Origin: Actinomycetota bacterium
Lineage (GTDB): Bacteria; Actinomycetota; UBA4738; HRBIN12
Length of the DNA: 64,000 nt
Assembly: GCA_040881665.1 (NCBI GenBank)
Contig: JBBECT010000004.1
Location: 117,782 to 181,781 of the forward strand
Direction of reading: 5' to 3'
Numbering within the stretch: position 1 is the first letter of the stretch; each line of letters begins with the position of its first letter. Positions 9,017-37,714 of this stretch are shown piece after piece. Both the position numbers and the translations under genes were made by a program. The notes beneath the pieces are model-generated. The model saw only the letters and a program-made list of their open reading frames with translations. It was not told the origin of the DNA and made no database searches.

Positions 9017-9050
9017 CCGGTTCCCCGCGCTCCTTAAGCTTCTCGCCCGT

Positions 9051-9070
9051 GCGACGGCGTACGCCGTCGC
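9051..9070. promoter_or_regulatory. 20-bp perfect palindrome GCGACGGCGTACGCCGTCGC in the ALDH-DMG oxidase intercistronic gap
   Basis: Seen in the sequence. On the minus-strand transcript it would form an 8-9 bp GC stem, but no U-tract follows, so it is more likely an operator or an RNA processing/stability hairpin than an intrinsic terminator. Confidence 0.35.
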
Positions 9071-9131
9071 CGGCACCGATGGTCGGCCCGCGTGGTTGCG
9101 CTGACAACCCACCGGTTGCGACCTCAGCAAC

Positions 9132-10586: not shown

Positions 10587-10679
10587 CGCTCCCCGTCCCC
10601 GCAACGGCGACGGGGGCGGCCCATGGACCGCCCCCGTCTCACCGCCGTGCTTCCCGTGTTCGGACCGTCCTGTTCGTGC

Positions 10680-11690: not shown

Positions 11691-11787
11691 GCGTCCTCCC
11701 TCCGTCGGCACGGCCGCTGCCGCTGCCGCTGCCTCACCCCGGCCGTCGCCACCGCTCCGGCCGCTGCTTCCTGGTACGCCATTCGAG

Positions 11788-13878: not shown

Positions 13879-13881
13879 CCG

Positions 13882-14895
13882 CTAGCGCTCCTCGACCATC
13901 GCGCCGAGCACCCGCGACCGATCCACGATGCCGAGCACCCGCTCGTCCTCGACCACGCGCAGCGTGAGGTCTTCGTCGACGACGAGCGGCAGCAGCTCCT
14001 GCACGACGGTCGTGGGTGCGACATCCGGTCCGTAGCGGCGTCCGTCCGTTGACGGCGGCGCCACCATGATCGAACGGGCCGTGAGCACGTGGGCGCGCGG
14101 AACGTCGCGGACGAAGTCGGCAACGTAGTCGTCGGCGGGAGCGGACACGACCTCCTCGGGGGTTCCGACCTGGACGAACCCGCCGTCTTTCATGATCGCG
14201 ATCCGGTCGCCGAGCTTCAGCGCCTCCATCAGGTCGTGGGTGATGAAGACCATCGTCTTGCGGAGCTCGCGCTGCAGGCGGATCACCTCCTCCTGCATGT
14301 CGCGGCGGATCAGCGGATCCAGGGCACTGAACGGCTCGTCGAACAGCATGATCTCCGGATCGGTCGCGAGCGCTCGGGCGAGCCCGACGCGCTGCTGCAT
14401 CCCACCGGAGAGCTCGTCGGGGTAGGACTCGCCCCAGCCTCCGAGTCCGACCACCTCGAGAACCTCGTTCGCGCGCGCGGTGCGGGCGTCTTTGTCCACC
14501 CCTTGCACCTCGAGGCCGAACGCGGCGTTGTCGACGATCCGCCGGTGCGGGAACAGACCGAAGTGCTGGAACACCATGCTGACCCTCGTCCGGCGGAGCT
14601 CCCGCAGACGATCTGCGCTCAGCTGCAGGATGTCGTCGCCGTCGATCGCCACGCTGCCGGCGGTCGGCTCGATCAGCCGTGAGATGCATCGCACGAGCGT
14701 GGACTTCCCGGAGCCCGACAGCCCCATCACGACGAAGACCTCGCCGGTCCCGACGTCGAACGAGACGTCCCGGACGGCGGCGACACAGCCGGTCTTCTCC
14801 AGCAGTTCGGCGCGGGCGAGGTTCGCGTCCGGCGAGCCGATGATCCGTTCGGCCTTCGGACCGTAGACCTTCCACACGTCACGACACGACAGCAT
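13882..14895 (-). CDS. glycine betaine/proline ABC transporter ATP-binding protein (ProV/OpuAA) with C-terminal CBS domains
   Basis: Walker A motif GLSGSGKST and signature LSGGMQQRV. The N-terminus VWKVYG aligns with ProV LYKIFG when the start is ATG at 14893-14895. The track's alternative start is GTG at 14961. Confidence 0.85.
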
Positions 14896-15036
14896 CAGGT
14901 CGGCAGGGGGATCGGTCCGTTCGTTCCCGCTAGACACCCTGGTCGAAGATACTGGGAGCACCTCCTCCCGTGCGCAAGGCAGGGGTTGCGGTCATCGCAA
15001 CCATCCGCGCACTCGTCAACCGGACGCCGCGGCCAG

Positions 15037-16701
15037 TCACGAGGCCTGCTGATGCCGGTAGAACCCGACCTCCTCCGGGGGAAGGGGTGTGTTGCCGAGC
15101 AGCAGGTCGGCGGCCTTCTCCGCGACCATCATCACGGGGGCGTAGATGTTGCCGTTCGTGACGTAGGGCATCACCGAGGCGTCGACCACCGACAGACCCT
15201 CGGTGCCCCGAACCCGCATCGTCAGCGGATCGACGACGGCGAGCTCGTCGGTTCCCATCTTCGCCGTGCACGAAGGGTGCAACGCCGTCTCGCCCTCCCG
15301 CGCCACCCACTCGAGGATCTGCTCGTCGGTCTCGACCGCCGGCCCCGGCGACAGCTCGCCGCCGTCGAACGGAGCGAACGCCGGGCGGCCCAGGATGTCG
15401 CGCGCGACGTCGATCGCCTCGACCCACTCGCGGCGATCCTGGTCGGTCGACAGGTAGTTGAACCGGAGCGCCGGATGCGTCCACGGATCACGGCTGGTGA
15501 TCTTCACCGTCCCCCGCGCATCGGAGTACATCGGGCCGATGTGCACCTGGTAGCCGTGGTCCCCGGCGGGAGCCGACCCGTCGTAGCGAACCGCGACCGG
15601 GAGGAAGTGGAACATCAGGTTTGGGTAGGCCACCTCGTCGTTGCTCCGTACGAACCCTCCGGCCTCGAAGTGGTTCGTCGCGCCGAGACCCGAGCGGAAC
15701 ACGAGCCACTGGAACCCGATCCACGGGCGGTTGCGCCACTTCAGACCCGGTGCGACCGACACCGGCTGGGTACAGGCGTGCTGGATGTAGACCTCGAGGT
15801 GGTCCTGAAGGTTCTCCCCGACGCCCGGCAGGTCCGCGACCATGTCGACCCCGAGCGCGCCGAGCTCGTCCGCTGCGCCGATCCCCGACAACTGCAGCAG
15901 CTGTGGCGAGTTGATCGCCCCTCCGCACAGCACGACCTCCCCGGCGCGAACCCGCTTCGGCGAGGTCCCCAACCCGTGGACGTATTCGACGCCGACGGCA
16001 CGCGACCCCTCGAACAGGATCCGTGTGACGAACGCACGGGTGCTGACCTCGAGGTTGGGACGATGCCGGACCGGGTGGAGGTAGGCGCGTGCGGCCGAGA
16101 GACGACGGCCATGGTGCACGTTCCGGTCGAAGGGCGCGAACCCCTCCTGGCGGTAGCCGTTGACGTCCTCGGTCAGGGGATACCCCGCCTGCTGCACGGC
16201 CTCGAAGAACGCCCCGAACAGGGGGCTCGTCGCCGGACCGCGCTCGAGCGCGAGCGGGCCCGCGTGGCCGCGGAACGGATCCTCGAGCTCGGCCGCGAGG
16301 CAGGACTCCATCCGCTTGAAGTACGGCAGGCAGTGCGCGTAGTCCCATGTCTCCATCCCCGGATCCGCGGCCCACCGCTGATAGTCCAACGGGTTCCCGC
16401 GCTGGAAGATCATGCCGTTGATGCTGCTCGAGCCGCCGAGAACCTTCCCCCGCGCGTGGTAGATCCGGCGCCCGTTCATGCGTGGCTCGGGCTCGGACTC
16501 GTACTTCCAGTCGTAGAACCGGCTCCCGATCGGGAACGTGAGCGCCGCGGGCATATGGATGAAGACGTCCCAGAGATAGTCGGGCCGGCCCGCTTCGAGC
16601 ACCAACACCCGGTTCGAGGCGTCGGCGCTCAGTCGGTTCCCGAGCGCGCTCCCCGCCGAGCCGCCGCCCACGATCACGAAGTCGTACTGCGTCGCAGTCA
16701 C
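15037..16701 (-). CDS. betA: choline dehydrogenase (GMC oxidoreductase)
   Basis: FAD motif [18 protein letters not shown] and extensive collinear similarity to E. coli BetA along the whole length. GTG start at 16701 with a GGAAGGGG ribosome-binding site 5 nt upstream. Confidence 0.9.
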
Positions 16702-16727
16702 CTGCGCCCCTTCCGGTGATGCATGTC

Positions 16728-16757
16728 TCCGACGCCTCGGAGCGTTCCGACGCCCGG
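16728..16757. promoter_or_regulatory. direct repeat TCCGACGCC(T/C)GG x2 at 18-nt spacing upstream of betA
   Basis: tccgacgcctcgg at 16728-16740 and tccgacgcccgg at 16746-16757, 27-45 nt upstream (minus strand) of the betA GTG start. No regulator gene is visible inside the operon. Confidence 0.3.
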
Positions 16758-16823
16758 CGCCGGAGGCCGAACGCGGGCGATGCTACAGGAGGGCCGGCGA
16801 GCGCGGGACCGGCCGGTTGCGCA

Positions 16824-17765
16824 TCACGCGCCACCGATACCGAGCAGGATGAGCCCGACGACCACGAGCCCGATGCCCGCGTACTGGTTCGGCGCGGGGC
16901 GCTCCCGGAACAGGGTCACGCCGCCGAGGACCGGGATCAATGTGAAGGTTGCCGACACGGCCGCCGTGATCGATACGAGCCCCAGCTCGCTGCCGCGGGC
17001 GTACGCCCAGATGCCGAACACGTCGGCGATCCCGACGGCGATCGCGAGCACCACGTTGCGGCGCGTCGTCCCCGATGGCGCGAGGATCCGCTCCGCGCGC
17101 GATCGATCCCGCCCGGGAGCCTCGGAGGCCAGCATCTCGTCGACCACGCCGTGCTCGACGACGGGGGTCGCCCGGCGCCGCACCGTCAGGACGACCGCGA
17201 TCAGCACGAGCGAGCCGATCCGCGACACGATCGTCGGCGGGAACACGCCGTAGTCCTGCGCGTAGCCGCCCGTCGCGAAGGCGCCGACCCCGAACCCGAT
17301 CATCGCCGCCACGGCGTACGGGATCCCTCGGCGGCTCCCGGCTTCCGCGACGCCGAGACGCCGGATGTCGGTCGAGGTCAGCACGACCCCGACCAACGTG
17401 GCCACGATCCCGGCGATCTCGAGCCCGCCCAGCGACTCTCCGAGGACGGTCACCGCGAGGAGCACCGTGACGACGCCGAAAGCCGAGGCGATCGGCGAGA
17501 CGAGGGCGATCGGCCCCAGCTCCAGCCCGCGGTAGAGGCCGAAATAGGCGACCCCCGCGCACAACCCCGTCCCGAACAACACGAGCGTGCCGCCTGCGGG
17601 GAGGTCCCACGGCGGGGAGAGCACCGCGAAGAGCAGGAGGAACCCGGCGACGCCGGTCAGCTGGGCGATGACGGTGACCGGACGGCTGCCCATCCGGCGC
17701 GAGGCGATCGCGGCAGAGAGGTCGGAGACGCCCCATCCGAGTGCGGCGAGCAGCCCGAAGAACAT
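16824..17765 (-). CDS. EamA/DMT-family membrane transporter
   Basis: About ten predicted transmembrane helices arranged as a duplicated EamA-like domain. Confidence 0.75.
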   Translation of the reverse strand: MFFGLLAALGWGVSDLSAAIASRRMGSRPVTVIAQLTGVAGFLLLFAVLSPPWDLPAGGTLVLFGTGLCAGVAYFGLYRGLELGPIALVSPIASAFGVVTVLLAVTVLGESLGGLEIAGIVATLVGVVLTSTDIRRLGVAEAGSRRGIPYAVAAMIGFGVGAFATGGYAQDYGVFPPTIVSRIGSLVLIAVVLTVRRRATPVVEHGVVDEMLASEAPGRDRSRAERILAPSGTTRRNVVLAIAVGIADVFGIWAYARGSELGLVSITAAVSATFTLIPVLGGVTLFRERPAPNQYAGIGLVVVGLILLGIGGA

Positions 17766-17804
17766 CTGCCGTGGCCGCCTACCGGCCGCCGCACCGTGTC
17801 GGGA

Positions 17805-19907
17805 TCACTCGGGGGCGCGCGCCTCCGCGAGCGCGTCCACCGCCACGGCCCCACGCGCCCCCACCAGGAGCGGGTTCGCCTCGAGGGAGGTCAGCCGGCC
17901 GCGCAGATCGTGGGCGGCACGCGCGATCGCTTCTACGGCCTTCGCGACGGCCTTCAGATCGTGCTCCTCGGCGTCGAGCCCACACCGGGATGCTTGTTCG
18001 TCCACGTAGCGTTGCGCTTGCTTGGGCGAGAGCGGCGCCGGGACGAACACGGCCTCGCCCATCTCGGCCCGCCCCCCGCCGGGACGCATCGTGATGCACG
18101 CACCGAAACGCTCGTCGATCACCGCGCCGACCAGCACCTCGTGGCCACGCACCATCTGCTGCACGATCACCTTCGGAGCCTTGGCGCCCGCGCGTTCCGC
18201 CGCCGTGAGGACCTCCCCGGCCGCCTCCGCCACCTCGGTCGGATCCTTCAGCCCGAGCCGGACGCCACCGAGCTTCGCCTTGTGCGGGATCTCCGGCGCG
18301 AGCGCCTTCACGGCGACCTGGCCCCCGATCGCCCGCGCCGCCTTGGCTGCCTGCTCCGGGGTCGTGACGACGTGCTCCTTCGGCCGCTTCACCCCGTAGA
18401 GCTCGAGCAACGCCGCCCCCTGTTCCTCGTCGAGCGCGCCCTCGAGTCCACGCAGCAGCCGCATCGCCTTCGTCCGCGCCGGGTGCGCCTCGAGATCGGG
18501 CACACGACGCTCCTTCGCCGACTGCAGGTCGACGAGTGCCTTGATCGCACCGGCGGCGGCACGATGTCCCTGCAGGAACGGGATCTGCGCGTCGTCCACG
18601 AAGATCTTCGCGGCCTTCGGGTACGACAGCGGGCTCATCGCCACCGATGCGAACACGGTCTTCGTCTCCTTCTGCAGCTCGCGCACCCGTTGGAGCACCG
18701 GTTCGGCCCAGCTGTCCTCACCCTCGAGCCGGGGAGGGAACGCGTCGAACGCGACGAAGCCGACGTTCGGATCGTTGGCGAGCGCCTCGAGGGCGCCGAC
18801 GAACATGTGGGTCTCGACCGCGGCCTGTCCGGTCACGTCGAGCGGGTTGTTGAGGTTCGCGAACGACGGAAGGGTCGCGCGTAGCTTCTTCGCCGTCGCC
18901 TTCTCGAACTCCGGAAGGTCGAGCCCGGCCGCACCGGCCGCCTCCGCGTAGAGTGTGCAGGCCCCGCCGGACTGCAGCGCAGCCGAGACGCCGGTCGTCG
19001 TGAGCTTGCGGTGGTAGCTGAGCAACAGGGCGGCCTCGAACATCTCGACCGGGTCGGCGACCAGCGTCGCACCAAGCCCGCGGAGCCACGCGTCGCGCAG
19101 GTCCGTATCGCCGGCGAGGGCGCCCGTGTGTGCGACGATCGACCGCCGGGCGGCCTCGCTCTTGCCACCCGGAGCGCACACGAGGATCGGCTTCCTCGCG
19201 TCGGCGAGGGCGCGCAGGCCGCGCTCGATCCCCTCGACGTCGCGCATCGTCTCGATGTAGGTCGTGACAACGCTCGTGTGCGGATCGTCGGCGGCCCACT
19301 CGAACATGTCGCCGAGCCCGAGCACCGCCTCGTTCCCGACGCCGAGGATGATCCGTAGGCCGACCCCGCGGTCCGAGGCGATCTGGTTCATCGTCCACGC
19401 GACCGTTCCCGACTGGGAGAGCACACTGATCGAGCCCGGGATCGGATCGGGTGGCGGCGTCGTGCCGTACGCGGCAACGCGATCGACGTAGTTGATGAAC
19501 CCTTCGACGTTCGGCCCGAGGACCGGCATCTTGTGGTTCGCGGCCACCTCCTGGAGCTGGCGCTGGAGCTCGCGACCTTCGTCCCCCGCCTCGGCGAATC
19601 CAGACGACACCACCATCGCCGAGCGCACGCCTGCTGCACCCGCCTCGTCGACCGCGCGCACCGCGACCTTCGCGGGAACGACGCACACGAGCAGATCCAC
19701 GCCCTTCGGCAGGTCTCCGGCCGAGGCGTAGCAGCGCCGTCCCCACACCTGTTCGTATTTAGGGTTCACCGGGAGGATCTCCCCGGAGAACCCGACGTGC
19801 TGCAGGCTCCGGAAGATCTCCGGCGCCCACGAGTCCGGCGACTCCGAGGCACCGACGATCGCGATCGATCTCGGTGCGAGCAGCGGCTCGAGCTTCGACG
19901 GCTTCAC
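17805..19907 (-). CDS. acetate--CoA ligase (ADP-forming) / NDP-forming acyl-CoA synthetase, fused alpha-beta, 700 aa
   Basis: CoA-binding N-terminal domain, succinyl-CoA synthetase-like ligase domain and ATP-grasp C-terminal domain. The start overlaps the stop of the upstream enoyl-CoA hydratase. Confidence 0.85.
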   Translation of the reverse strand: MKPSKLEPLLAPRSIAIVGASESPDSWAPEIFRSLQHVGFSGEILPVNPKYEQVWGRRCYASAGDLPKGVDLLVCVVPAKVAVRAVDEAGAAGVRSAMVVSSGFAEAGDEGRELQRQLQEVAANHKMPVLGPNVEGFINYVDRVAAYGTTPPPDPIPGSISVLSQSGTVAWTMNQIASDRGVGLRIILGVGNEAVLGLGDMFEWAADDPHTSVVTTYIETMRDVEGIERGLRALADARKPILVCAPGGKSEAARRSIVAHTGALAGDTDLRDAWLRGLGATLVADPVEMFEAALLLSYHRKLTTTGVSAALQSGGACTLYAEAAGAAGLDLPEFEKATAKKLRATLPSFANLNNPLDVTGQAAVETHMFVGALEALANDPNVGFVAFDAFPPRLEGEDSWAEPVLQRVRELQKETKTVFASVAMSPLSYPKAAKIFVDDAQIPFLQGHRAAAGAIKALVDLQSAKERRVPDLEAHPARTKAMRLLRGLEGALDEEQGAALLELYGVKRPKEHVVTTPEQAAKAARAIGGQVAVKALAPEIPHKAKLGGVRLGLKDPTEVAEAAGEVLTAAERAGAKAPKVIVQQMVRGHEVLVGAVIDERFGACITMRPGGGRAEMGEAVFVPAPLSPKQAQRYVDEQASRCGLDAEEHDLKAVAKAVEAIARAAHDLRGRLTSLEANPLLVGARGAVAVDALAEARAPE

Positions 19908-20767
19908 GCGTCACCGCCGCCGTGCTGCTCGCGGAAGCGCGCGTCGCGCCAGGCGATCGCTTCCTTCAGTCCCTTCTCGAGCGTGATCGAGCGGAACTCC
20001 TCGCGCTCGGGGAGGTCCGCCGTCTCGATCAGGGTGTCGAGCGCGACGTTCGCATCGATCGCCTCGCGGAACCCCTGCACCTCCCACATCTTGTTGATCG
20101 CCTTCTTCTGGAGTGAGATCGCGAACGGATCGTTCTTCGCGATCTCGTTCGCGAGTTCGAGTGTCGCGTCGTCGAGGTTCTCGCGCGGCACCACGCGGTT
20201 CACGAGCCCGATCGCCTTCGCCTCCTCCGCCGAGATGCGGTCCTCGCCGGTGAACAGCAGCTCCTTCGACTTGCGGGAACCGATCACCCACGGCATCACC
20301 ATCGTGACGACGCCGGACCCGAACCGGATCTCCGGCTCGCCGAACCGCGCGTCATCCGACGCCACACACAGGTCGCACACCATCATCAGGTCGCAACCGC
20401 CTGCGAGGCAGTAGGAGTGCACCTGGGCGATCACCGGCTTGGGATGGTCGAAGAACGCGAGCATGTCGTCGGCCGAATGCTTCAACTCCTCGTACCAGCC
20501 GGCGGAGTCCTTCGTGCCGGCGTTCGCGTCCTCGTTGAGGTCGTAGCCGGAGCAGAACGCTCGGCCCTCCCCGCGAAGGACCAAGACGCGAACCGTGTCG
20601 TCGTCCGCCGCCGACGCGAGCGCCTGCTGCATCGCGCCGAGCAAGGTGCCATTGAGCGCATTCAACGCTTTCGGTCGGTTCATCGTCAGCCGGCGAACGG
20701 GACCGATGTTCTCGACGAGCAGGACGGGGCCGGTGTTCTCGGGGGTGCTGATGCTCTCACTCCTCAC
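19904..20767 (-). CDS. enoyl-CoA hydratase/isomerase (crotonase family)
   Basis: Crotonase fold; the region around LTMNRPKALNALN matches the family. Proposed GTG start at 20765-20767 has AGGTGGGGA 10 nt upstream. The track ORF extends further upstream, to 21271, but that part is Arg/Gly-rich. Confidence 0.75.
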   Translation of the reverse strand: MRSESISTPENTGPVLLVENIGPVRRLTMNRPKALNALNGTLLGAMQQALASAADDDTVRVLVLRGEGRAFCSGYDLNEDANAGTKDSAGWYEELKHSADDMLAFFDHPKPVIAQVHSYCLAGGCDLMMVCDLCVASDDARFGEPEIRFGSGVVTMVMPWVIGSRKSKELLFTGEDRISAEEAKAIGLVNRVVPRENLDDATLELANEIAKNDPFAISLQKKAINKMWEVQGFREAIDANVALDTLIETADLPEREEFRSITLEKGLKEAIAWRDARFREQHGGGDA

Positions 20768-28763: not shown

Positions 28764-29987
28764 ATGGACGAGTTGGGACCCCAACACAGCCCCGGCGGAT
28801 CGGTCACCCCGAGCTCGCTGGCGAACCGTCGTGGTCCCTCGGGCGTGCTCGTGCTGCTGGCGGGTTACGCAGCGTTCGGGATGTACTGGGGCGTCTGGGT
28901 GGTCATCCAGCTCGATTTCCTCCGCGAGAACCACATGAGCGAGGGCGCCCTCGGGTTGCTGTTCTCGGGATTGTCCGTCGTCTCGATCGCGACGATGACG
29001 CTGCTGACCCCTCGGATCCAGCAGCGACCGCTCGCGATGACCATCGCGATCGGACTCATAACGATGGCAGGGGGTGGCGCCCTGATCGCGATCGGCGCGG
29101 GTCCGATCCTCCTGGCCGGCTTCGTGGTCCTCGGCGTGGGCAACGGTCTGATCGACGTGTTCTCGAACATCGCCGCCCAGGGGGTCGAGGCCCGCGAGCG
29201 CCGGCCGGTCCTCCAATGGTTGCACGCCTCGTACAGCGTGGGCGGCATCGTGGGGGCGATCGGAGCCGGAGCGGCGATCGAAGCAGGCGTGTCGTTCACG
29301 ACGGTCATGCTCGTGGAGATGCTGGCACTCGTCGCGGCGGCGACGTGGACGATCACCTCACCGCGGCTCCGCCGGCTCCCGCGCCCGGCCGCGGCGCAGA
29401 GCGGGTTCTCGCTCGGCGTCCTGCGCCGCGCTCCGAGGTTGCTGCTCCCCGCCCTCGTGATCATGTTCGCCTTCTTCGTCGAAGGCTCGATGGACGTGTG
29501 GTCGGGCACCTACGTGCGCAAGACCCTGGGATCGACGGCGTTCGTCGCCGGGGCCGCCTTCGCCGCCTTCAGCCTCGCGATCGCCGTGGGCAGGCTCACC
29601 GCGGGCAAGCTGCTCTTCGGACTCGGCTACGACCGCACGATCCTCGTGTCCGGCGCCGGCGCCTTCGTCGGAGGCGTGATCGCGACCCTCACCTCGAGCC
29701 CGCTCGTGGCGGCGATCGGGTTCCTGATCCTCGGGTTCTTCATCTCCGCCGCGGCGCCGGCCGCGTTCGGACTCGCGGACCGGACCGACCAGGATCCGGC
29801 GAGCGCCGTGGCTGGCATGAGCACCGTCGGCTACACGGGGTTCGTGATCGGACCGCCGATCATGGGCCTGCTCGCCGAGAGCAGCGGTCTGCGCCTGACG
29901 ATGGGCGTGATCGCGATGAGCACGCTCGGGGTCGCCGCCTGCGGCATCCTGGATCGCCTCCGTCACGGCGCCTCGGTCCGCACGTGA
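28764..29987 (+). CDS. MFS transporter, 407 aa
   Basis: Twelve-helix hydrophobic profile. The in-frame ATG at 28764 lies after the convergent ATPase start region; the track ORF begins earlier, at 28452, but that stretch overlaps the ATPase. Confidence 0.7.
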   Translation: MDELGPQHSPGGSVTPSSLANRRGPSGVLVLLAGYAAFGMYWGVWVVIQLDFLRENHMSEGALGLLFSGLSVVSIATMTLLTPRIQQRPLAMTIAIGLITMAGGGALIAIGAGPILLAGFVVLGVGNGLIDVFSNIAAQGVEARERRPVLQWLHASYSVGGIVGAIGAGAAIEAGVSFTTVMLVEMLALVAAATWTITSPRLRRLPRPAAAQSGFSLGVLRRAPRLLLPALVIMFAFFVEGSMDVWSGTYVRKTLGSTAFVAGAAFAAFSLAIAVGRLTAGKLLFGLGYDRTILVSGAGAFVGGVIATLTSSPLVAAIGFLILGFFISAAAPAAFGLADRTDQDPASAVAGMSTVGYTGFVIGPPIMGLLAESSGLRLTMGVIAMSTLGVAACGILDRLRHGASVRT

Positions 29988-30042
29988 ACGGGGCCGGCCG
30001 CCCCTTCCCAGGTCCCCGGCGGCCGGTGTATCCTGCACGAAC

Positions 30043-30060
30043 TTAGAATGACTGTTCTAA
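30043..30060. promoter_or_regulatory. AT-rich perfect inverted repeat TTAGAA-tgactg-TTCTAA, candidate operator upstream of the Rieske oxygenase gene
   Basis: 6-6-6 palindrome in a locally AT-rich patch of a 70% GC genome, 100 nt upstream of ATG 30159. Confidence 0.45.
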
Positions 30061-30080
30061 TCTTGCCGAGCGCGTTCTCG

Positions 30081-30116
30081 CACGCACCGTCGCACGCACC
30101 GTCGTGCGCACCGTCG
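30081..30116. repeat. 3 x 12-nt perfect/near-perfect tandem direct repeat (cacgcaccgtcg cacgcaccgtcg tgcgcaccgtcg) in the promoter region of the Rieske oxygenase gene
   Basis: Read directly from the sequence: two identical copies and a third differing at two of its first three positions. It lies 43 nt upstream of the oxygenase ATG and is followed by a 5-codon mini-ORF (ATG AAG CAG GCA AGC TGA). Confidence 0.6.
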
Positions 30117-30158
30117 TGAGATGAAGCAGGCAAGCTGAACGGACGAGGAGGCACCCGG

Positions 30159-31307
30159 ATGTTGGACCAGCATGACGACCGGATCCGCTACGACGAGGAC
30201 GACTGGACCCCCCGTCCCACGCTCGGCGCCGAGGACTACCGGAGCGAGGACATCTGGCAGGCCGAGCGCGAGAAGATCTGGTGGGGTGACTGGGTCTGCT
30301 TCGGCCGCAGCGAGGAGGTCGCCAACCCCGGCGACTACCTCGTCCGCGACCTCGCCGGCGAGTCGATCTTTATCGCCCGCAACCGCGAGGGAGTCCTGCA
30401 CGGCTTCTACAACGTGTGCAGCCACCGAGGGACGAAGTTCCTCGACGAGGGGTGCGGCGCGGTCAAGAAGGCCTTCAAGTGCCCCTACCACGCGTGGACC
30501 TACGATCTCGACGGGAACCTGATCGGCACGCCGAACGTGCAGGAGGACGAATCCTTCGACCGGTCGCGCTACCCGCTGCACGGCTTCGCGGTCGAGGAGT
30601 ACGCGGGGTTCCTGTGGGTCAGCCTCGCGGAGCAGCCGCGCCCGCTGATGGACGCGCTCACCCACGGCGCCGAATCGATCACCGCGTTCGAGCGCTTCAA
30701 GATGGAGGAGTTGCGGATCGGCGCGCGGATCGTTTACGAGGTCGCAGCGAACTGGAAGATCGTCGTCGAGAACTACAACGAGTGCCTCCACTGTCCCACC
30801 GTTCACCCCGAGCTCGTGCAGGTGGTTCCCCTGTTCCGCTTCGGCGAAGTGTGGGATGGCGAGACCCGCGACGATGGCAACTGGATGATGGAGGGCGCGA
30901 CCAGCTTCACCGCGACGGGCGAGAGCGCGTTGCCCAAGCTGCCGGACCTGCTCGAGGACGACTACAAGATGTACTACGGCTCCTACGAGTTCCCGAACCT
31001 GATGCTGAACCTGCACCCGGACTGCGTGATGTACTACATCGGCTATCCGACCGGACCCAACCACACGACGGTCGTGTCCGAGTTCCTGTTCCGCCCCGAG
31101 ACGATCGCCGACCCGAACTTCACGCCCGAGCCGGTCGTCGAGTTCTGGGACCTGATCTCCAAGCAGGACTGGGGCATCGTCGAGCGCGCACAGACCGGCG
31201 TCGGTTCGCGGGCGTTCAAGCAGGGCGTCTACCCGCGCCAGGACCGCTTCCTCTACAACTTCAACGAGGAGTGGCGCCAGGTGATGGGCCGGCAGCTCGG
31301 CGGCTAG
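30159..31307 (+). CDS. Rieske [2Fe-2S] non-heme iron oxygenase alpha subunit (GbcA/Stc2/CntA-like quaternary-amine demethylase/oxygenase family)
   Basis: Rieske motif CSHRGTKF...CPYHAW and a mononuclear-iron catalytic domain. GAGGAGG ribosome-binding site 8 nt upstream of ATG 30159. Confidence 0.85.
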   Translation: MLDQHDDRIRYDEDDWTPRPTLGAEDYRSEDIWQAEREKIWWGDWVCFGRSEEVANPGDYLVRDLAGESIFIARNREGVLHGFYNVCSHRGTKFLDEGCGAVKKAFKCPYHAWTYDLDGNLIGTPNVQEDESFDRSRYPLHGFAVEEYAGFLWVSLAEQPRPLMDALTHGAESITAFERFKMEELRIGARIVYEVAANWKIVVENYNECLHCPTVHPELVQVVPLFRFGEVWDGETRDDGNWMMEGATSFTATGESALPKLPDLLEDDYKMYYGSYEFPNLMLNLHPDCVMYYIGYPTGPNHTTVVSEFLFRPETIADPNFTPEPVVEFWDLISKQDWGIVERAQTGVGSRAFKQGVYPRQDRFLYNFNEEWRQVMGRQLGG

Positions 31308-31918
31308 GTTCCGGCGGCGCCGGGAGCCACGCCCAGCCGTTCCGAGGCGGCGCGCAAGCATACCGACACCGCGTGCGCCCGTGGGTAGCCGGGCATCCCC
31401 GCCGTGATCTGCACGGCGTAGCCGGTCACGAGCATCGAGACCCACTCGACGAAACCCTCGACGTCGACCTCGCGGAACGCGCCGACCCCGATCCCTTCCC
31501 GGACGATCGTCGCGAGCGCGGCGTTCCAGTGGGCGTCGCGCTCCTCGAGACGCGCGACGATCGACGGATCGTGGACCGCCCGCGCCCAGAGCTCTAGCCA
31601 CAGGGTCCATTGCTCGTCACCCGCCCCCACGGGCATCGAGAGCTCCAGGAACCGGGCCAACCGCGCGGGGGGGTCGGACGAGCGGTCGAGCTCGGCGGCC
31701 AGGGTCGCGTAGAACTGCGAGTCCTCGCTCCACCGAAGCGCCTCGAGGAGCAGCTCCTCCTTCGAGGAGAAGTAGTACATCACGTGCCCGGGGCTCATCC
31801 CGGCGCGGTCGGCGATGTCGGCGATCCGCGTCTCGGCGAAGCCTCGCTCAGCCATCGCGGCCGCAGCAGCGCGCAACACGCGCTCGCGCCGCTCCGGGTT
31901 GGTACCCCGGCTCTCCAC
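31304..31918 (-). CDS. TetR-family transcriptional regulator
   Basis: HTH region RERVLRAAAAAMAERGFAETRIADIADRAGMSPGHVMYYF. GTG start proposed at 31916-31918, 8 nt after the upstream ALDH stop. The track ORF's 5' extension to 32086 is Arg/Ser-rich and overlaps the ALDH. Confidence 0.7.
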   Translation of the reverse strand: MESRGTNPERRERVLRAAAAAMAERGFAETRIADIADRAGMSPGHVMYYFSSKEELLLEALRWSEDSQFYATLAAELDRSSDPPARLARFLELSMPVGAGDEQWTLWLELWARAVHDPSIVARLEERDAHWNAALATIVREGIGVGAFREVDVEGFVEWVSMLVTGYAVQITAGMPGYPRAHAVSVCLRAASERLGVAPGAAGT

Positions 31919-31925
31919 CCGTCCC

Positions 31926-33383
31926 TTAGGCGTCCTCGGCGAGGTTGAAGTAGATGTGCTTCTCCTCCATGTAGTCCGAGACGCCCTCCTTGCCCAGCTC
32001 GCGGCCGATCCCCGACTGCTTGTAGCCGCCCCACGGAGCTTCCGTCGGGGCCGGCTGCGTGTCGTTGATCCACACGATGCCGGCACGGAGCGAGCGCGCG
32101 GTGTTGATCGCCTTCTTCACGTCGGAGGTCCACACGGCGGCGGCGAGCCCGTACGGGTTGTCGTTCGACAGCTCGATCACCTGCTGGGTCGTCTCGAACG
32201 GGATCACCGTCATCACCGGACCGAAGATCTCCTCTTGCGCGATCGTCGCGGAGTTCTCGACGTCGGCGAAGATCGTCGGCGGAACGAAGTACCCCGCCGC
32301 GAGCTTTCCGTCGCCGGGCACGGTTCCCTGGGCGGCGAGCTTCGCCTCCTTCTGTCCGATGTCGATGAAGTGCTGCACCCGCTCCTGCTGCTCCTTCGAT
32401 ACGAGCGGACCCATCGTCGTGTCGGGATCGGCCCCGTCACCGACCTTCACCGCGTTCGCCCTGTCCACGAGCGCGCTGAGGGCGTCGTCGTAGATCTCCT
32501 TCTGGATGAAAACGCGCGAGCCCGCCGAGCAGATCTCGCCCTGGTTCCAGAAGATCCCGTTCGCCGATCCCTCGATCGCCGCGTCGAAGTCGGCGTCGGC
32601 GAACACGATGTTGGGCGACTTGCCCCCGAGCTCGAGCGTGACGCGCTTCAGCGTGTCCGCACCGGAACGCATGATGATCTTGCCGACATCGCGCGAGCCC
32701 GTGAACCCGACCTTGTCGACGCGCGGATCGGTGACCAACGGGGCGCCTGCCGTCTCCCCGAATCCGGTGATCACCTGCAGCACGCCGGGCGGCAGCCCGG
32801 CCTCCTCGAGGATCTTCGGGATCTCGAGGGCGGTCAGCGGCGTCTGCTCGGCGGGTTTGAGGATGAACACGCACCCGGCGGCGATCGCCGGAGCGATCTT
32901 CTGCACCGCCATCGGCATAGGGTAGTTCCACGGGGTGATCCCGACCGCGACACCGGTCGGCTCCTTCACGACGAGCGAGAGGGCATCGGGACCGACCGGC
33001 GGGATGTAGCCGTCGATCTTCGTCGCCCAGCCCCCGTAGTACTCGAACATGAAGGCAACCTCTTCGAGGTCGTCGCGCGCCTCGCCGATCGGCTTGCCGC
33101 AATCGATCGTCTCGAGCTCGGCGAGTCGCTCGAGCTCCCGGCGCATGATCTCGGCGGCGCGCAGGAGGATCCGCCCGCGGTCGCGCTCGGAGGTCCGGGG
33201 CCACCACGCTCCGTCGTCGAACACCGAGCGCGCGAACCCGACGGCTCGGTCCACGTCGGCCGGCTGGGCGTCGGGGACGGTAGCGACGACCTCGCCGGTC
33301 GCGGGGTTGAACACGTCGAACCGCTTGCCGTCGAGCGCATCGGTCCACTCGCCGGCGATCGACATCTTCAGCTCCTCGGCCAT
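31926..33383 (-). CDS. NAD-dependent aldehyde dehydrogenase (betaine-aldehyde/aminobutyraldehyde dehydrogenase-like), 485 aa
   Basis: ELGGKSP and EICSAGSR catalytic motifs. ATG verified at 33381-33383 with a GAGGAGG ribosome-binding site 7 nt upstream. Confidence 0.85.
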   Translation of the reverse strand: MAEELKMSIAGEWTDALDGKRFDVFNPATGEVVATVPDAQPADVDRAVGFARSVFDDGAWWPRTSERDRGRILLRAAEIMRRELERLAELETIDCGKPIGEARDDLEEVAFMFEYYGGWATKIDGYIPPVGPDALSLVVKEPTGVAVGITPWNYPMPMAVQKIAPAIAAGCVFILKPAEQTPLTALEIPKILEEAGLPPGVLQVITGFGETAGAPLVTDPRVDKVGFTGSRDVGKIIMRSGADTLKRVTLELGGKSPNIVFADADFDAAIEGSANGIFWNQGEICSAGSRVFIQKEIYDDALSALVDRANAVKVGDGADPDTTMGPLVSKEQQERVQHFIDIGQKEAKLAAQGTVPGDGKLAAGYFVPPTIFADVENSATIAQEEIFGPVMTVIPFETTQQVIELSNDNPYGLAAAVWTSDVKKAINTARSLRAGIVWINDTQPAPTEAPWGGYKQSGIGRELGKEGVSDYMEEKHIYFNLAEDA

Positions 33384-33444
33384 CGGGGTGCCTCCTCTTG
33401 GTCTGGTTCCCACGGCGTTCTTCCGCACTCCGAGACTCCAAAGC

Positions 33445-34278
33445 CTACCCGTCCGGCACGGGAGGGGAGAAGCCCAGTCCCCACGCGTCGGCGCCGCCGT
33501 CGATCATGACGGTCGTACCGGTGATGTACCCGGCTGCATCGGTCGACAGGAACGCGATCGCGGCCGCGACCTCGTCGACCGAGCCTGCGCGGCCGAGCGG
33601 AACCTGGGACGCCCATTCCTTAACGACCTCCGAACCCCCGTACCCCTCGAGTCCTTCGCTGGCGATCAGCCCGCAGGCGATGCAGATCGCGCGGACCCCG
33701 AAGCGGCTCCACTCCAGGGACAGGCCCGACGCGAGGGTCTCGAGCGCGGACCGTGCCATCGACGAGTGCACCATCTGCGGGATCCCGCGCCGAGGACTGA
33801 ACCCGATCGCGAAGATCACGCCGCGACGCCGAGGGATCATCCATCGGTTCGCGACTTTCGTCGTCACGTCCCAGACGGCGTCCACGTTCAGCCGGTGCAC
33901 CGCGCGCATGCCCTTCGTCGAGGTCTCCTCGGCCGCCGCGGCGAACTGCCCGCCGGCGTTGTTCACCAGGATGTCGACACGACCGAACCGCTCATCGACA
34001 GCATCGAGCAACGCGTCGACCTGTTCGGATTCCCGGACATCGGTCGCCAGGGCGAGGCAAGCCGTCCCCGCAGCCGTCAGCTCGCGCTCGACCTCCCGGA
34101 TCGGTTCCTCACGACGCCCACAGATCGCGACGGACGCGCCCGCACGCGCGAGCGCACTGGCGGTGGCCCGACCGATCCCCGTTCCGCCACCGGTGACGAT
34201 CGCGATCCGACCGCCGAGAACACCGCTCGCGATCGGATCGGCGAACGGGAGGTCGCGTGGAGCCGCCGGTTCCTCCAT
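33445..34278 (-). CDS. SDR-family short-chain dehydrogenase/reductase
   Basis: TGGGTGIGRATA cofactor motif and an NNAG motif. Confidence 0.8.
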   Translation of the reverse strand: MEEPAAPRDLPFADPIASGVLGGRIAIVTGGGTGIGRATASALARAGASVAICGRREEPIREVERELTAAGTACLALATDVRESEQVDALLDAVDERFGRVDILVNNAGGQFAAAAEETSTKGMRAVHRLNVDAVWDVTTKVANRWMIPRRRGVIFAIGFSPRRGIPQMVHSSMARSALETLASGLSLEWSRFGVRAICIACGLIASEGLEGYGGSEVVKEWASQVPLGRAGSVDEVAAAIAFLSTDAAGYITGTTVMIDGGADAWGLGFSPPVPDG

Positions 34279-34376
34279 GGCGGGGAGTATGCCGCAGGCA
34301 CCCGCGCCGGTCGAAATCGGATACCGCCCGATCCGGGCGCAACCACGGTTCTCACGCTCGGCGGTAGGATCGGTCC

Positions 34377-34652
34377 GTGCTCCTGTTCATCGTCGTGCTG
34401 TTGCTGCTCGCCGCGATCTTCGGCGTGCTCGGAACCGTCCTCAAGGTCGCCTTCGTGCTGGTCCTGGGCGCGGTCCTCGCCGTCGCCACGATCGCGCTGC
34501 TGGGCTACTACTGGTTCCGCTACCGGCTCCGCGAGTATCAGCGCCGGACGCAGCAGGTGGGCCCGGGGGGAAATCCTCACGTGCCGCCGGTCACGCCCTC
34601 GAGCACGATCGACGTGGGTGAGCCGGTCCGCGACGAGCTCACGGACGACTGA
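34377..34652 (+). CDS. small hydrophobic membrane protein, 91 aa
   Basis: GTG at 34377 with a GGTAGGA ribosome-binding site 7 nt upstream. Two predicted transmembrane helices then a polar tail. Its 3' end overlaps the convergent oxidoreductase stop by 14 nt. Confidence 0.45.
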   Translation: MLLFIVVLLLLAAIFGVLGTVLKVAFVLVLGAVLAVATIALLGYYWFRYRLREYQRRTQQVGPGGNPHVPPVTPSSTIDVGEPVRDELTDD

Positions 34653-36108
34653 CCCGATCCCGCCCGCGTCGCCGCCGGGCGATCAGGGCCTCGCGGTAGG
34701 CCAGCGGTGCAACCTGGAGCGCCCGGGCGACCGGCCCGCGCCCCCGCCCGCGCTCGTCCGCCCGATCGCCGGACTCCATCCCCCAGACGGCCAGCCGGAC
34801 GAGCGGCCAACGCAGTGGTTCGGGCGGTGCCGTCCCGATCGGCGCACCGACGACGGGCATCGTCGACCACCGGTCCTGCGAACCGAGGACGAGCGAGGCG
34901 AGGATCCGCCCGCCGAGCTTGGTCTGGGCGAGCCCGTGACCGGAGAACCCGAGCCCCGCGTGCACGTTGCCGGATGCGCGCGTATGGAAGAACGGAACGA
35001 ACGTGGGCGTCATGTCGATCGGTCCACCCCACGCGTGCGTGCAGCGAACGCCCTCCAACTGCGGGAACAACCACACGAGACCCCGTGCCGCCTGCTGGGC
35101 GACGCGACGATCGTGGGTCGCCCGGCGGCCGATCGAACCGCCCCACACGACCCCCGTGGATCCGCCACCGATCGCGAGCCGTCCATCGTCGGTCCGCCGC
35201 AGGTAGTAGAGGAGATCCCGGCCGTCGGCGAGACCCGTCCAGCTGGTCCAGCCCAGGTCGTCCCGGATCCGATCGGGGATCGGTTCGGTGACGACCATGT
35301 AGTCGGCGATGTTGCCGAACGCGGTCCGATACCCGGGCCAGGCAGCCGCCCAGGCTCCGATCGTCAGCACGACGTGATCGGCACGCACCGCTCCGCGCTC
35401 GGCGCGAACGATCGTCGGCGTGCCCTCCTCGAGCGAGATCGCGCGCGTTCCCTCGAAGATCGCGACGCCACGCTCGAGCAGCACACGACGGAGTCCGCGC
35501 GCGAGCCGTGCCGGCTGGCAGATCGCATTCGCGGGAGTGAACGTCGCGCTCGTGATCCTCGGGGAATCGGCGATCGCTCGCGCCTGCGGGAGGGTCAGAG
35601 GCCGGATCGCGTCCGGCCGGCCGTTGCGAACGGCGAACGCGGCCGGACCCTGGTCCGGGTCGCCCTCCTGCCACGAGCCGGTGCGGACGGCCATGACGCC
35701 CTCCGCGTGGAACCACGCATCGATCCCGTGCCGGTCGAGCCATCTCCCGACCTCGTCCACCTCTTCCGCGAGCGCCGTCGCGTACCGCCTGCCCTCCTCC
35801 AGCCCGAACAGGCCGCACAGTTCCGGGAACTCATGCCATGACGAGGAGAAGAACCCCCCGTTGCGTCCGCTGGCTCCCCCACCGCAGATGTCCTGCTCGA
35901 GCAGAACGATACGCAGCCCGGGCTCCCGCTCGGTCAGCTCGTAGGCCGCCCACATGCCGGCGAAACCACCGCCGAGGACACAGACGTCCGCGCCGATCCG
36001 CCTCTCGAGGGGGGGACACGGCGCACCACGATCGGCGGCGAGCGCCTCCTCGAGCCAGAAGCTGCGCCGATCCCCGGGGGGCGGCGCCTCGATCCAAGAG
36101 GTCGTCAT
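34639..36108 (-). CDS. FAD-dependent oxidoreductase (DAO family; gamma-glutamylputrescine oxidase/PuuB-like)
   Basis: VCVLGGGFAGMWAAYEL dinucleotide motif. ATG verified at 36106-36108. Confidence 0.75.
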   Translation of the reverse strand: MTTSWIEAPPPGDRRSFWLEEALAADRGAPCPPLERRIGADVCVLGGGFAGMWAAYELTEREPGLRIVLLEQDICGGGASGRNGGFFSSSWHEFPELCGLFGLEEGRRYATALAEEVDEVGRWLDRHGIDAWFHAEGVMAVRTGSWQEGDPDQGPAAFAVRNGRPDAIRPLTLPQARAIADSPRITSATFTPANAICQPARLARGLRRVLLERGVAIFEGTRAISLEEGTPTIVRAERGAVRADHVVLTIGAWAAAWPGYRTAFGNIADYMVVTEPIPDRIRDDLGWTSWTGLADGRDLLYYLRRTDDGRLAIGGGSTGVVWGGSIGRRATHDRRVAQQAARGLVWLFPQLEGVRCTHAWGGPIDMTPTFVPFFHTRASGNVHAGLGFSGHGLAQTKLGGRILASLVLGSQDRWSTMPVVGAPIGTAPPEPLRWPLVRLAVWGMESGDRADERGRGRGPVARALQVAPLAYREALIARRRRGRDRVSRP

Positions 36109-36117
36109 GGAACGGAC

Positions 36118-36549
36118 CTACGCGGCCCCGGCCGAGTCCGAGCGACGGCGCGGACGCCGGACCCCTGGGATCGCAGCCAGCAGGCGCCATCCCATGAGGA
36201 GCACGCCCGTCATCGCGAGGGTCACGGCGAGGAAGACCACGAGGTCGGTGCCCGAGGGATGTCCGAGCACCAGCGTGCGGACCGCAACCGCGACCGGCAC
36301 GCTCACCGCCCACGTCAACACGAGCGTGCGCCTCCCGGGCTGCCGGTAGGTTCCGGCGACGAGGGCGATCGCGAACCATGCGCCGACCAGGGGGACCGCC
36401 GTACGGGCAACGGCGGCGGCCGTCGAGCTGGCGTCGTGGCTGCGCAGTCCCAGCAGGACGAACGCGATCAGTGCCAGAGCATCGCCCACGGCGAGCACCG
36501 GGACCTTCACGGCGGGACGATCGAGCGGACCGCGTGCCATGAGGAGCAT
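36118..36549 (-). CDS. small integral membrane protein (DUF3054-like), about 140 aa
   Basis: Four hydrophobic segments. Sits immediately downstream of the FAD oxidoreductase on the same strand. Confidence 0.5.
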   Translation of the reverse strand: MLLMARGPLDRPAVKVPVLAVGDALALIAFVLLGLRSHDASSTAAAVARTAVPLVGAWFAIALVAGTYRQPGRRTLVLTWAVSVPVAVAVRTLVLGHPSGTDLVVFLAVTLAMTGVLLMGWRLLAAIPGVRRPRRRSDSAGAA

Positions 36550-36619
36550 GGTCCCATACGGGCCCGATCACACGGCCGCCGGAGGGAACCGGCGGCGGGT
36601 GGTTGACGTCTCGGGGAAG

Positions 36620-37714
36620 ATGGACCGGCACCCTCCCATGGCCATGGCCGACACGAAGACACCTCGTCGAGCGTTGCTCGTCGGCGTGCCGCTGCTCGCG
36701 CTCGCGATCGCGGCCGTCGTCGCCTTCGTCGTATTCCGTGGGCCGCCCCCGGTCCCGATCCGGGTCGACGGGCAGCAGATGCTCGTCGACGAGGGAACGA
36801 CGTTCGGCTCGCTGCTCGCGAGCGAACACCTCGAGGCACGGAACGGGCGGCTGCTCGACGTCGATGGCGGGATCCTGCAGCGACGGCACGACCCGGGACG
36901 GATCCTCCTGAACGGGCTCGAACCGCCCTCGCGTGGGGTCCTGCTCGCCGACGGTGATCGGATCGACGTCCTCGACGGCAAGGACGAGACCGAACCCACG
37001 GTCCGCACGACCCGCCGTCTCGGAACGCTCCAGGCACCCAACCCCGCCCGCACACTCGGTCGCGGACCGTCCGACATCACCACCGTTCGCGGGCAGCTCT
37101 CGAACCTGCTCGTTCGCTCGACGATCCGGCGGGTCGGCCCGATCGAGCAACCGAACGCGGTCGCGCTCACCTTCGACGACGGACCGTGGCCGAACCACAC
37201 CGCGAAGATCCTCTCGATCCTCGAGCGCATGAAGGTGAAGGCGACCTTCTTCGTCGTCGGTTCCTGGGCCGAGCGCTACCCGATGCTCGTCCGCCGTGCG
37301 CGGGCGATGGGCATGCAGATCGGCAGCCATTCCTGGTCGCATCCCTACGATCCCCCGTTCGACTCCCTGCCGACCCAGAAGGTGGAACGCGAGATCGCCG
37401 ACACCGATGCACTCCTGGACCGGCTCGGGATCCACACGGGCCTGTTCCGGCCACCGGGCGGAAGCTGGGACGCCGAGGTTCGCGACATCGCCCGGTCGTA
37501 CGGGATGCGCCTGGTCCTGTGGGACGTCGATCCGCACGACTGGATGGCGAAGACCTCCCCGAAGGAGCTGGTGAAGACCGTGCTCGCCCGGGTGCGGCCG
37601 GGATCGGTGATCCTGCTGCACGACGGCGGTGGAGATGCAGCCACCACGATCGAGGCGCTCCCCGAGATCATCGCGGGCATCCGCAAGAAGGGACTGGGGT
37701 TCACAACCCTGTAG
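36620..37714 (+). CDS. polysaccharide deacetylase (NodB-homology domain) with an N-terminal transmembrane anchor
   Basis: NodB motifs TFDDGP and HSWSHP. In-frame ATG at 36620; alternative starts at 36539 or 36638. Confidence 0.7.
   Translation: MDRHPPMAMADTKTPRRALLVGVPLLALAIAAVVAFVVFRGPPPVPIRVDGQQMLVDEGTTFGSLLASEHLEARNGRLLDVDGGILQRRHDPGRILLNGLEPPSRGVLLADGDRIDVLDGKDETEPTVRTTRRLGTLQAPNPARTLGRGPSDITTVRGQLSNLLVRSTIRRVGPIEQPNAVALTFDDGPWPNHTAKILSILERMKVKATFFVVGSWAERYPMLVRRARAMGMQIGSHSWSHPYDPPFDSLPTQKVEREIADTDALLDRLGIHTGLFRPPGGSWDAEVRDIARSYGMRLVLWDVDPHDWMAKTSPKELVKTVLARVRPGSVILLHDGGGDAATTIEALPEIIAGIRKKGLGFTTL

Follow-up and report, generated by a model that had tools for sequence, protein, structure and literature searches.

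In this work, we analysed a 64-kb stretch of DNA (GenBank contig JBBECT010000004.1, positions 117,782–181,781; hereafter the window) from a metagenome-assembled genome of an uncultured member of the Actinomycetota, a soil actinomycete. Our subject is the 171-nt intergenic region between the stop codon of an MFS transporter gene (29987) and the ATG of a Rieske oxygenase gene (30159). This region contains an AT-rich palindrome, TTAGAATGACTGTTCTAA, which is most likely the conserved operator of a TetR regulator encoded tail-to-tail with the oxygenase: across lineages, this form of the palindrome and the TetR gene occur together. We consider it likely that the region as a whole is the TetR-repressed promoter of a group V Rieske oxygenase gene, and that a tandem repeat and a mini open reading frame (mini-ORF) in its leader are without function. 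The palindrome, the tandem repeat, the mini-ORF and a ribosome-binding site all lie within the 171 nt, where a first-pass annotation had placed them. The principal features are as follows.

30005–30010, + strand: −35-like hexamer TTCCCA, within a conserved CTTCCC box, assigned from conservation
30029–30034, + strand: −10-like hexamer TATCCT, assigned from conservation
30043–30060: 18-bp palindrome TTAGAATGACTGTTCTAA (TTAGAA-tgactg-TTCTAA), predicted operator of the TetR regulator 31304–31918
30078–30116, + strand: tandem repeat of 12 nt × 3.2 detected by Tandem Repeats Finder (TRF), with three 12-mers at 30080–30115 (GCACGCACCGTC twice and GTGCGCACCGTC)
30121–30138, + strand: mini-ORF MKQAS (ATG AAG CAG GCA AGC TGA), read from the sequence and judged a chance ORF
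30145–30151, + strand: Shine-Dalgarno sequence GAGGAGG, read from the sequence, 7 nt before the ATG at 30159
30159–31307, + strand: Rieske oxygenase alpha subunit, 382 aa (Pfam Rieske and Ring_hydroxyl_A)
31304–31918, − strand: TetR regulator with a BetI-type C-terminal domain, convergent with the oxygenase gene (Pfam TetR_N and TetR_C_6)

The palindrome tracks the TetR gene

With A or T at 13 of its 18 positions, 30043–30060 is the most AT-rich 18-mer of the window, whose base composition is 69% G+C and 31% A+T. The window contains 398 perfect palindromes with 6-nt arms and a spacer of 0–8 nt, among which three have arms with at least four A/T, and TTAGAATGACTGTTCTAA alone has five out of six. 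The palindrome exceeds chance expectation. A search of the window for a second copy with up to three mismatches returned nothing beyond a near-miss in a coding region at 43866.

For comparison, orthologous loci (numbered with the prefix L) were taken from reference genomes (80 loci) and from metagenomes (another 80), and homologues of the TetR regulator and of the oxygenase brought further contigs into the set. A palindrome with the 16-bp core T(T/A)GA(A/C)-N6-(G/T)TC(A/T)A is found in 27 distinct promoters. The particular variant TTAGAAT-N4-GTTCTAA lies ahead of the oxygenase gene in six lineages (the window with L081–L083, L001, L085/L086, L169/L170, L175 and L176), and in all six a TetR orthologue (54–100% identical) is positioned tail-to-tail with the oxygenase gene and overlaps it. 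Specifically, L001, L084/L085, L169–L172, L175 and L176 each have a TetR orthologue of 54–75% identity in tail-to-tail arrangement with a Rieske gene; in L177/L178, the gene tail-to-tail with TetR is truncated and unannotated. Among the remaining loci with a readable upstream region (~120), none carries TTAGAAT-N4-GTTCTAA and none has an adjacent TetR gene of this kind. The linkage does not follow the relatedness of the enzymes: L169, L175 and L176 have oxygenases with no more than 52–54% identity to the window protein, whereas orthologues whose promoters carry TTGAAC-N4-GTTCAA (hereafter TTGAAC-type) are closer, at 62–78%, and the 18-mer of L176 is identical to that of the window despite its distant oxygenase. 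The TTAGAAT-N4-GTTCTAA variant tracks TetR rather than the oxygenase.

More distant members of the TetR subfamily are accompanied by related sites. In L173 and L174, a TetR protein of 47% identity is encoded divergently from a non-Rieske gene of the GcvT family (aminomethyltransferase-like), and the intergenic region between the two contains TTAGAATGGGATTCTAA (TTAGAA-N5-TTCTAA; L173 4912–4928, L174 1216–1232), so that the TetR subfamily and its TTAGAA-type box may also control a putative tetrahydrofolate-dependent demethylase gene. Regulators with a TetR_C_6 domain and 35–38% identity have TTGACT-N4-(G/A)TTCAA directly upstream of their own genes, at the following sites.

TTGACT-type sites: L013 10785; L015 12870; L020 8906; L065 5925; L075 8963; L079 10437; L167 13566–13581 (TTGACTGACCGTTCAG)

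In L167, the TetR_C_6 gene is divergent from an FAD-oxidoreductase gene, and several of the 35–38% loci have a second inverted repeat nearby (CTTGAC...GTCAA).

The regulator itself matches PF00440 (57 bits) and PF13977 (61 bits), both above the cutoffs. It is not BetI at the equivalog level, as it scores 73.3 bits against a cutoff of 201.3 for TIGR03384 and 59.6 bits against 118 for NF001978. The helix-turn-helix segment with the recognition helix, GMSPGHVMYYF, is near-invariant across the TetR subfamily. Within the window, the regions 34279–34638 (upstream of a short-chain dehydrogenase/reductase (SDR) gene) and 36090–36620 (DAO/DUF3054) offer only a poor half-site, GAGAACCGTGGTTGCG. The first-pass annotation had suggested that the palindrome is a repressor site and that the local TetR might bind it; the conservation of the palindrome and its co-occurrence with the TetR gene across lineages argue for both suggestions.

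A second group of Actinomycetota oxygenase orthologues has a divergent AsnC/Lrp-type regulator gene and no palindrome. Their upstream regions share the motifs GCGATTCTCGCAGA and (G)CGATATCCG(C), which flank a −10-like box, TATCCTTG.

AsnC/Lrp-type loci: L006–L010, L012, L014, L017, L018, L020, L021, L024, L075, L078, L079 and L166

Together with the TetR-linked and TTGAAC-type promoters, these loci place the same enzyme under at least three regulatory set-ups.

The palindrome lies at or just after the predicted −10 element

In most Actinomycetota orthologous promoters, a CTTCC(C) box is located 18–19 nt upstream of TATCCT, and in 25 of the 27 distinct promoters a TA...T hexamer (TATCCT, TATCGT, TATGCT or TAGGCT; usually TATCCT) is positioned 2–15 nt 5′ of the palindrome. 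We infer that the two boxes are the −35 and −10 elements. The left half of the palindrome, TAGAAT (30044–30049), is itself a perfect TANNNT −10 hexamer facing the oxygenase gene. All six TetR-linked lineages have TAGAAT as the left arm and GTTCTA as the right (TAGAAC on the opposite strand), and in L169 and L176 the TAGAAT within the palindrome is the only −10 candidate, with none seen further upstream. The palindrome is therefore best read as lying at or just after the −10 element, a position that would fit repression by occlusion or roadblock. At the position equivalent to GAGGAGG, the orthologues have purine-rich GGAG-type boxes.

The tandem repeat and the mini-ORF are not conserved

TRF describes the 12-nt array with a period of 12, 3.2 copies and a score of 64, the second highest in the window. 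The same array, with three copies, is present in three further assemblies of the window organism (L081–L083), and is therefore not an assembly artefact; the fixed copy number in all of these assemblies also argues against phase variation. The 12-nt repeat is absent from L001, L169, L175, L176 and all TTGAAC-type promoters. Elsewhere in the window, the 12-mer has 19 matches with up to two mismatches, as against 23.8 expected, and so is not above chance. The array accounts for an unusual spacing, since the palindrome is 99 nt from the ATG in the window versus 9–57 nt in 25 distinct array-less promoters; in L001, with an oxygenase 84% identical, the distance is 29 nt. Because they are downstream of both the −10 element and the operator, the 12-mers are predicted to lie in the transcribed leader, that is, in the 5′ untranslated region (UTR).

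The closely related loci L085/L086 (oxygenase 85% identical) have the same operator and the same MFS–oxygenase–TetR–ALDH–SDR gene order as the window (ALDH, aldehyde dehydrogenase), with an unrelated array in the leader: GGTC(C/T)CT(T/C)TGCGGCC × 5, a 15-nt unit, which abuts the ribosome-binding site (L085 1770–1844, equivalent to L086 1291–1365). Immediately before its 15-nt array, L085 has one copy of the window unit (GCGCACCG), which suggests that the window and L085 had a longer ancestral leader in common, of which different segments were expanded. Our reading is that the arrays arose by slippage in a spacer under no constraint, their neutrality being a matter of interpretation.

The mini-ORF MKQAS is preceded by no properly spaced Shine-Dalgarno sequence, but only by a GAG at a distance of 1 nt from its start codon, and does not share the reading frame of the oxygenase gene. 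It is absent from L001, L085 and every other orthologous promoter, and we judge its presence to be at chance level. The annotation had named absence of the palindrome and the tandem repeat from orthologous promoters as evidence against its scheme; by that comparison, the palindrome is conserved and the tandem repeat is absent.

Weighing of the alternatives

Several observations weigh against the interpretation of the palindrome as a TetR operator in a σ70-type promoter with a neutral leader. The TetR gene is convergent with its proposed target instead of divergent, which is the less usual layout, and no matching palindrome is found in the window upstream of the gene array that contains TetR, so that autoregulation is not evident. 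A strict σ70 consensus scan of 29900–30250 gave no match, which leaves the promoter assignment to conservation. About 20 promoters carry TTGAAC-N4-GTTCAA with no TetR gene within 4–6 kb, and in L002, L003, L005, L016, L019, L023, L027, L059 and L076, all of this type, the neighbouring ORFs include neither a TetR nor a common neighbour; the regulator of the TTGAAC-type promoters could belong to another family. The core GAAC-N4-GTTC is presumably similar to the Gram-positive LexA box. The palindrome might accordingly be the site of another regulator, for example one of LexA type, or a mere AT-rich −10 or melting region, as TAGAAT in its left arm, the sole −10 candidate in L169 and L176, would allow. 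We find this quite unlikely. The TTAGAA...TTCTAA form strictly co-occurs with an adjacent TetR orthologue, and also with the TetR paralogue at the GcvT-family gene. Moreover, both arms are conserved and differ symmetrically from TTGAA...TTCAA, as expected for the site of a dimer but not for a −10 hexamer alone, and the box of a global regulator would not shift symmetrically in one clade. A LexA box was rejected for the window variant in view of its strict linkage to TetR.

The presence of two unrelated arrays (12 nt × 3 and 15 nt × 5) within one ~100-nt interval of two sister lineages is likewise unexpected under pure neutrality, and raises the question of whether the arrays are selected 5′-UTR elements, such that leader lengthening or copy number tunes or switches expression in a contingency-like manner. 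Arrays with about three or more copies and a TRF score of at least 64 are uncommon in comparable DNA (about 16 independent arrays in 1.5 Mb, or ~1 per 90 kb), the leaders with arrays span 99–109 nt from palindrome to ATG as against the shorter range of the 25 other distinct promoters, and L084 (4500–4906), from an assembly with the same protein as L085, has a run of N at that very place. Selection on the arrays is nevertheless unlikely: the copy number shows no sign of hypervariability, there is no signal of RNA structure, L001 and the distant TetR-linked lineages lack any array, and the density comparison overstates the surprise because slippage products are better tolerated in intergenic than in coding DNA. 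There is only a small chance that the arrays, which triple the leader length, are selected and tune or switch expression, for example through the influence of a bound repressor or of the leader RNA on the initiation of translation. The layered control envisaged in the first-pass annotation, with a repressor at the palindrome, an activator at the three 12-mers and MKQAS as a leader peptide, is very unlikely. The array is a real and stable sequence feature, and response-regulator sites are commonly laid out as three direct repeats with a spacing of about one helical turn, but the 12-mers sit in the transcribed leader, past both the −10 element and the operator, a position from which activators normally do not act and at which an activator is implausible. 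The L085 array, by abutting the ribosome-binding site, leaves no space for a downstream promoter, and the leader contains no structure of the terminator or antiterminator kind. The frequency of the 12-mer is at chance level, and no properly spaced ribosome-binding site precedes MKQAS. All orthologous promoters lack both the repeats and the mini-ORF, and this non-conservation largely refutes the proposal. Finally, a leader of about 100–118 nt is unusually long for the gene family, which might point to a cis-acting RNA (riboswitch or attenuator) that senses the substrate. We give this hardly any weight: the folding energy is no different from that of shuffled controls (z = 0.02 in the window, −0.64 in L085), Rfam has no match at the gathering threshold in the whole window or at E ≤ 1 in 29950–30220, and the extra length consists of the non-conserved repeat. 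The leader has neither the structured RNA nor the conserved ORF by which a riboswitch or a leader-peptide attenuator would be recognised.

The oxygenase is a group V enzyme of the Va-like type

We assigned the class of the oxygenase from hidden Markov model (HMM) scores, alignments to PDB structures and a published diagnostic residue. The protein matches PF00355 and PF00848, and its Rieske motif, CSHRG...CPYH, is kept in all 120 closest homologues. Of the proteins with a solved structure, CntA is the closest (6y8j; E = 1.7e-51, with 33% of 313 aligned positions identical, residues 26–354). In this alignment, ENYNECLHCPTVH corresponds to CntA Y203, E205 (the bridging Glu), C206, H208, C209 and H213, and KQDWG corresponds to D323, so that the 2-His-1-carboxylate iron site and the bridging glutamate (E205, H208, H213 and D323, with roles set out in PMC7948474) are present. 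A Cys-X-X-Cys pair next to the mononuclear iron, which is a feature of some group V members (PMC10952381), is also present, with E-C-L-H-C aligned to CntA C206/C209.

An aromatic residue at CntA position 203, which makes a cation–π interaction with the ammonium group, characterises group Va (CntA, choline monooxygenase and OxyBAC), whose members carry out C–N cleavage or hydroxylation, while the group Vb demethylases GbcA, BmoA and Stc2 carry Asn at this position (PMC7948474). The window protein has Tyr at this position, as do its 120 closest homologues without exception, and the clade of 52–54% identity (L169, L175 and L176) has Phe. The best NCBIfam match is the GbcA model NF058607, at 183.8 bits against a cutoff of 670 and mainly in the N-terminal half. 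The oxygenase is thus, by sequence, of group V and Va-like (CntA/choline-monooxygenase type). The HMM scores, PDB alignments and residue motif rule out an aromatic-ring dioxygenase, in agreement with the quaternary-amine grouping of the first-pass annotation. Its narrower GbcA/Stc2-type assignment fails, as the protein has Tyr rather than Asn at position 203 and a GbcA score far under the cutoff.

The reductase partner and the product

Among the ORFs scanned across the 64-kb window, there is no FNR- or ferredoxin-type reductase (PF00175, PF00970 or FNR-like), and the sole Fer2 domain is that of the RACo corrinoid activator. The annotated orthologous loci (L081–L083, L084/L085, L166–L168, L169–L172, L175 and L176) have no adjacent reductase either. 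The annotation's observation that the oxygenase has no neighbouring reductase is thus confirmed, and extends to its orthologues, so that the missing partner is a property of the family and not a peculiarity of the locus; the FNR-type reductase gene beside the oxygenase gene that typifies CntAB and GbcAB is absent.

Neighbouring genes in two phyla hint at an oxygenase reaction that releases an aldehyde. In the window, a betaine-aldehyde-dehydrogenase (BADH)-like ALDH gene (31926–33428) is located upstream of the TetR gene, and its product probably handles the aldehyde product of the oxygenase. It scores 546 bits with the BADH model TIGR01804, under the cutoff of 668.6, and is retained with 91–93% identity in L001, L084 and L085. 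In Chloroflexota, the gene directly upstream of the oxygenase gene encodes a CoA-acylating (methyl)malonate-semialdehyde dehydrogenase (TIGR01722, 720 bits against a cutoff of 448.5). This arrangement is seen in Chloroflexota of the Limnocylindria type, at L025 4388–5926 and at about 40 other loci among L022–L080 and L116–L158, with a gap of about 10–25 nt, and the gene pair looks like an operon. The pairing hints that the oxygenase product is malonate semialdehyde or methylmalonate semialdehyde; a substrate resembling beta-alanine betaine would be a matter of speculation.

Locus layout and neighbouring genes

The genes and repeats around the promoter and its two-gene module are as follows.

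28764–29987, + strand: MFS transporter gene (Pfam MFS_1; a 407-aa gene call in the identical contigs L081/L082)
29991–30026, + strand: GC-rich inverted repeats I1 (CCGGCCGCC/GGCGGCCGG) and I2, just past the MFS stop codon, from a repeat search
31926–33428, − strand: BADH-like ALDH gene, upstream of TetR (Pfam Aldedh; TIGR01804)
33445–34278, − strand: SDR gene, from a domain search
34639–36108, − strand: DAO-type flavoprotein gene, from a domain search

The gene order MFS–oxygenase is retained in L001 and L084/L085. The inverted repeats at 29991–30026 are a possible terminator of the MFS gene that would overlap the −35 region; they are followed by no T-run, and a terminator scan of 29900–30250 had no match. 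At their 3′ ends, the oxygenase and TetR genes overlap by 4 nt in the window (31304–31307) and by 41–47 nt elsewhere (L169 4928–4968; L085 2959–3005). The overlap leaves no room for a terminator between the two convergent genes, so transcription of either would have to enter the other, and antisense interference could result. The SDR gene appears to have CATACT 7 nt ahead of its ATG and to lack a Shine-Dalgarno sequence (34279–34300, − strand), which points to an mRNA without a leader.

The region upstream of the oxygenase gene encodes an MFS transporter, a PotD-like ABC system and an amine oxidase. Further away, about 160–19910 of the window is a choline/glycine-betaine catabolic island, with genes for MTHFR, the RACo corrinoid activator, a pterin-binding methyltransferase, a B12-binding protein, a DMGDH-like DAO–GcvT fusion, an ALDH, an OpuAC-type ABC transporter, a GMC (choline-dehydrogenase-like) oxidoreductase and an ADP-forming acyl-CoA synthetase. 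The corrinoid methyltransfer genes among them (B12-binding, pterin-binding, RACo and MTHFR) are at about 160–6556. No MttB-family methyltransferase gene was found in the part of the window readable in frame, the frame being ambiguous in 1–2500. The first-pass annotation had credited the organism with two N-demethylation chemistries: the corrinoid system is real, and the case for the oxygenase as the other is weakened by its Va-type Tyr.

Proposed mechanism and implications

On these grounds, we propose that the 171-nt region comprises the promoter, operator and 5′ UTR of the group V oxygenase gene. Transcription would start from a weak σ70-type promoter, TTCCCA–18 nt–TATCCT, or alternatively with TAGAAT inside the palindrome as the −10 element. 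The palindrome, at or just 3′ of the −10 element and the putative start site, would be occupied by a dimer of the tail-to-tail TetR, which would block RNA polymerase whichever −10 hexamer is used. A small-molecule ligand would free TetR from the operator; the BetI-type ligand domain and the type of enzyme make the quaternary-amine substrate, or an amine related to it, the probable ligand. The 12-nt repeat and MKQAS would be carried in the transcribed leader as recent acquisitions of the lineage, most simply through replication slippage. The oxygenase would be a homo-oligomeric, alpha-only enzyme that receives electrons from a reductase or ferredoxin encoded elsewhere, and its aldehyde product would pass to the neighbouring aldehyde dehydrogenase.

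This would be an ordinary, textbook-type TetR repressor–operator arrangement at a catabolic oxygenase gene, and its value is practical. It provides a precise predicted operator, TTAGAAT-N4-GTTCTAA, for an uncharacterised BetI-like TetR subfamily. The conserved two-gene module of oxygenase and tail-to-tail TetR could reveal the inducer in a reporter strain, and knowledge of the TetR ligand would lead more quickly to the substrate of the oxygenase. The oxygenase is the more interesting object, as it belongs to a large uncharacterised, group Va-like clade in the Actinomycetota and Chloroflexota of soils. At E ≤ 1e-20, 3,764 proteins were retrieved as homologues, and among the papers searched we found none that characterises this actinobacterial clade. 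If it is true that the clade cleaves a quaternary amine to trimethylamine and an aldehyde, it would constitute an unrecognised aerobic methylamine route in soil. Two leads remain, namely this abundant Rieske clade of quaternary-amine type and the recurrent tandem expansion in one leader.

Comparison with known systems

Among characterised oxygenases, the window protein is most readily compared with CntA of Acinetobacter baumannii (PDB 6Y8J, group Va). It keeps the CXH...CXXH motif, the bridging E205, the C206/C209 pair, the iron ligands H208/H213/D323 and Tyr203, and an aldehyde dehydrogenase gene is near the oxygenase gene, as expected for an aldehyde-releasing reaction. However, the identity is only 33%, and the alignment is poor in the segments with the residues by which CntA binds the carboxylate and hydroxyl groups of carnitine. 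The locus also differs from that of CntA in having no adjacent CntB-type reductase gene, a regulator of the TetR family and an uncultured soil actinomycete as the host. With the group Vb N-demethylases GbcA/BmoA and Stc2, which act on glycine betaine and stachydrine, the protein shares group V membership, the CXXC pair and the bridging Glu. The alignment to Stc2 (3VCA; E = 5e-32) is good in the N-terminal half alone, and the ENNRECYHC of Stc2 corresponds to ENYNECLHC in the window protein, with Asn replaced by Tyr.

On the regulatory side, the window TetR shares with BetI the combination of TetR_N and a BetI-type C-terminal domain. Related half-sites occur in the betI box of proteobacteria, ATTGACG-CGTCAAT, though with a spacing unlike that of the window operator (PMC12442346). 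Compared with BetI, RolR and McbR, the window TetR, whose binding is predicted, is encoded by a gene that converges on its presumed target and overlaps with it, rather than diverging from it. The only literature match to the exact motif strings was a summary of two experimentally characterised actinobacterial TetR proteins, RolR and McbR (PMC9210681), which offer a precedent for an operator of this sort. RolR binds TGAAC-N4-GTTCA, with repression ascribed to a roadblock, and this REP1 sequence equals the TGAAC-N4-GTTCA found at orthologues of the window oxygenase (PMC9210681). McbR binds TAGAC-N6-GTCTA (PMC9210681), which has the same 5-N6-5 arrangement as the window's TAGAA-N6-TTCTA and matches it at four of five positions in each arm.

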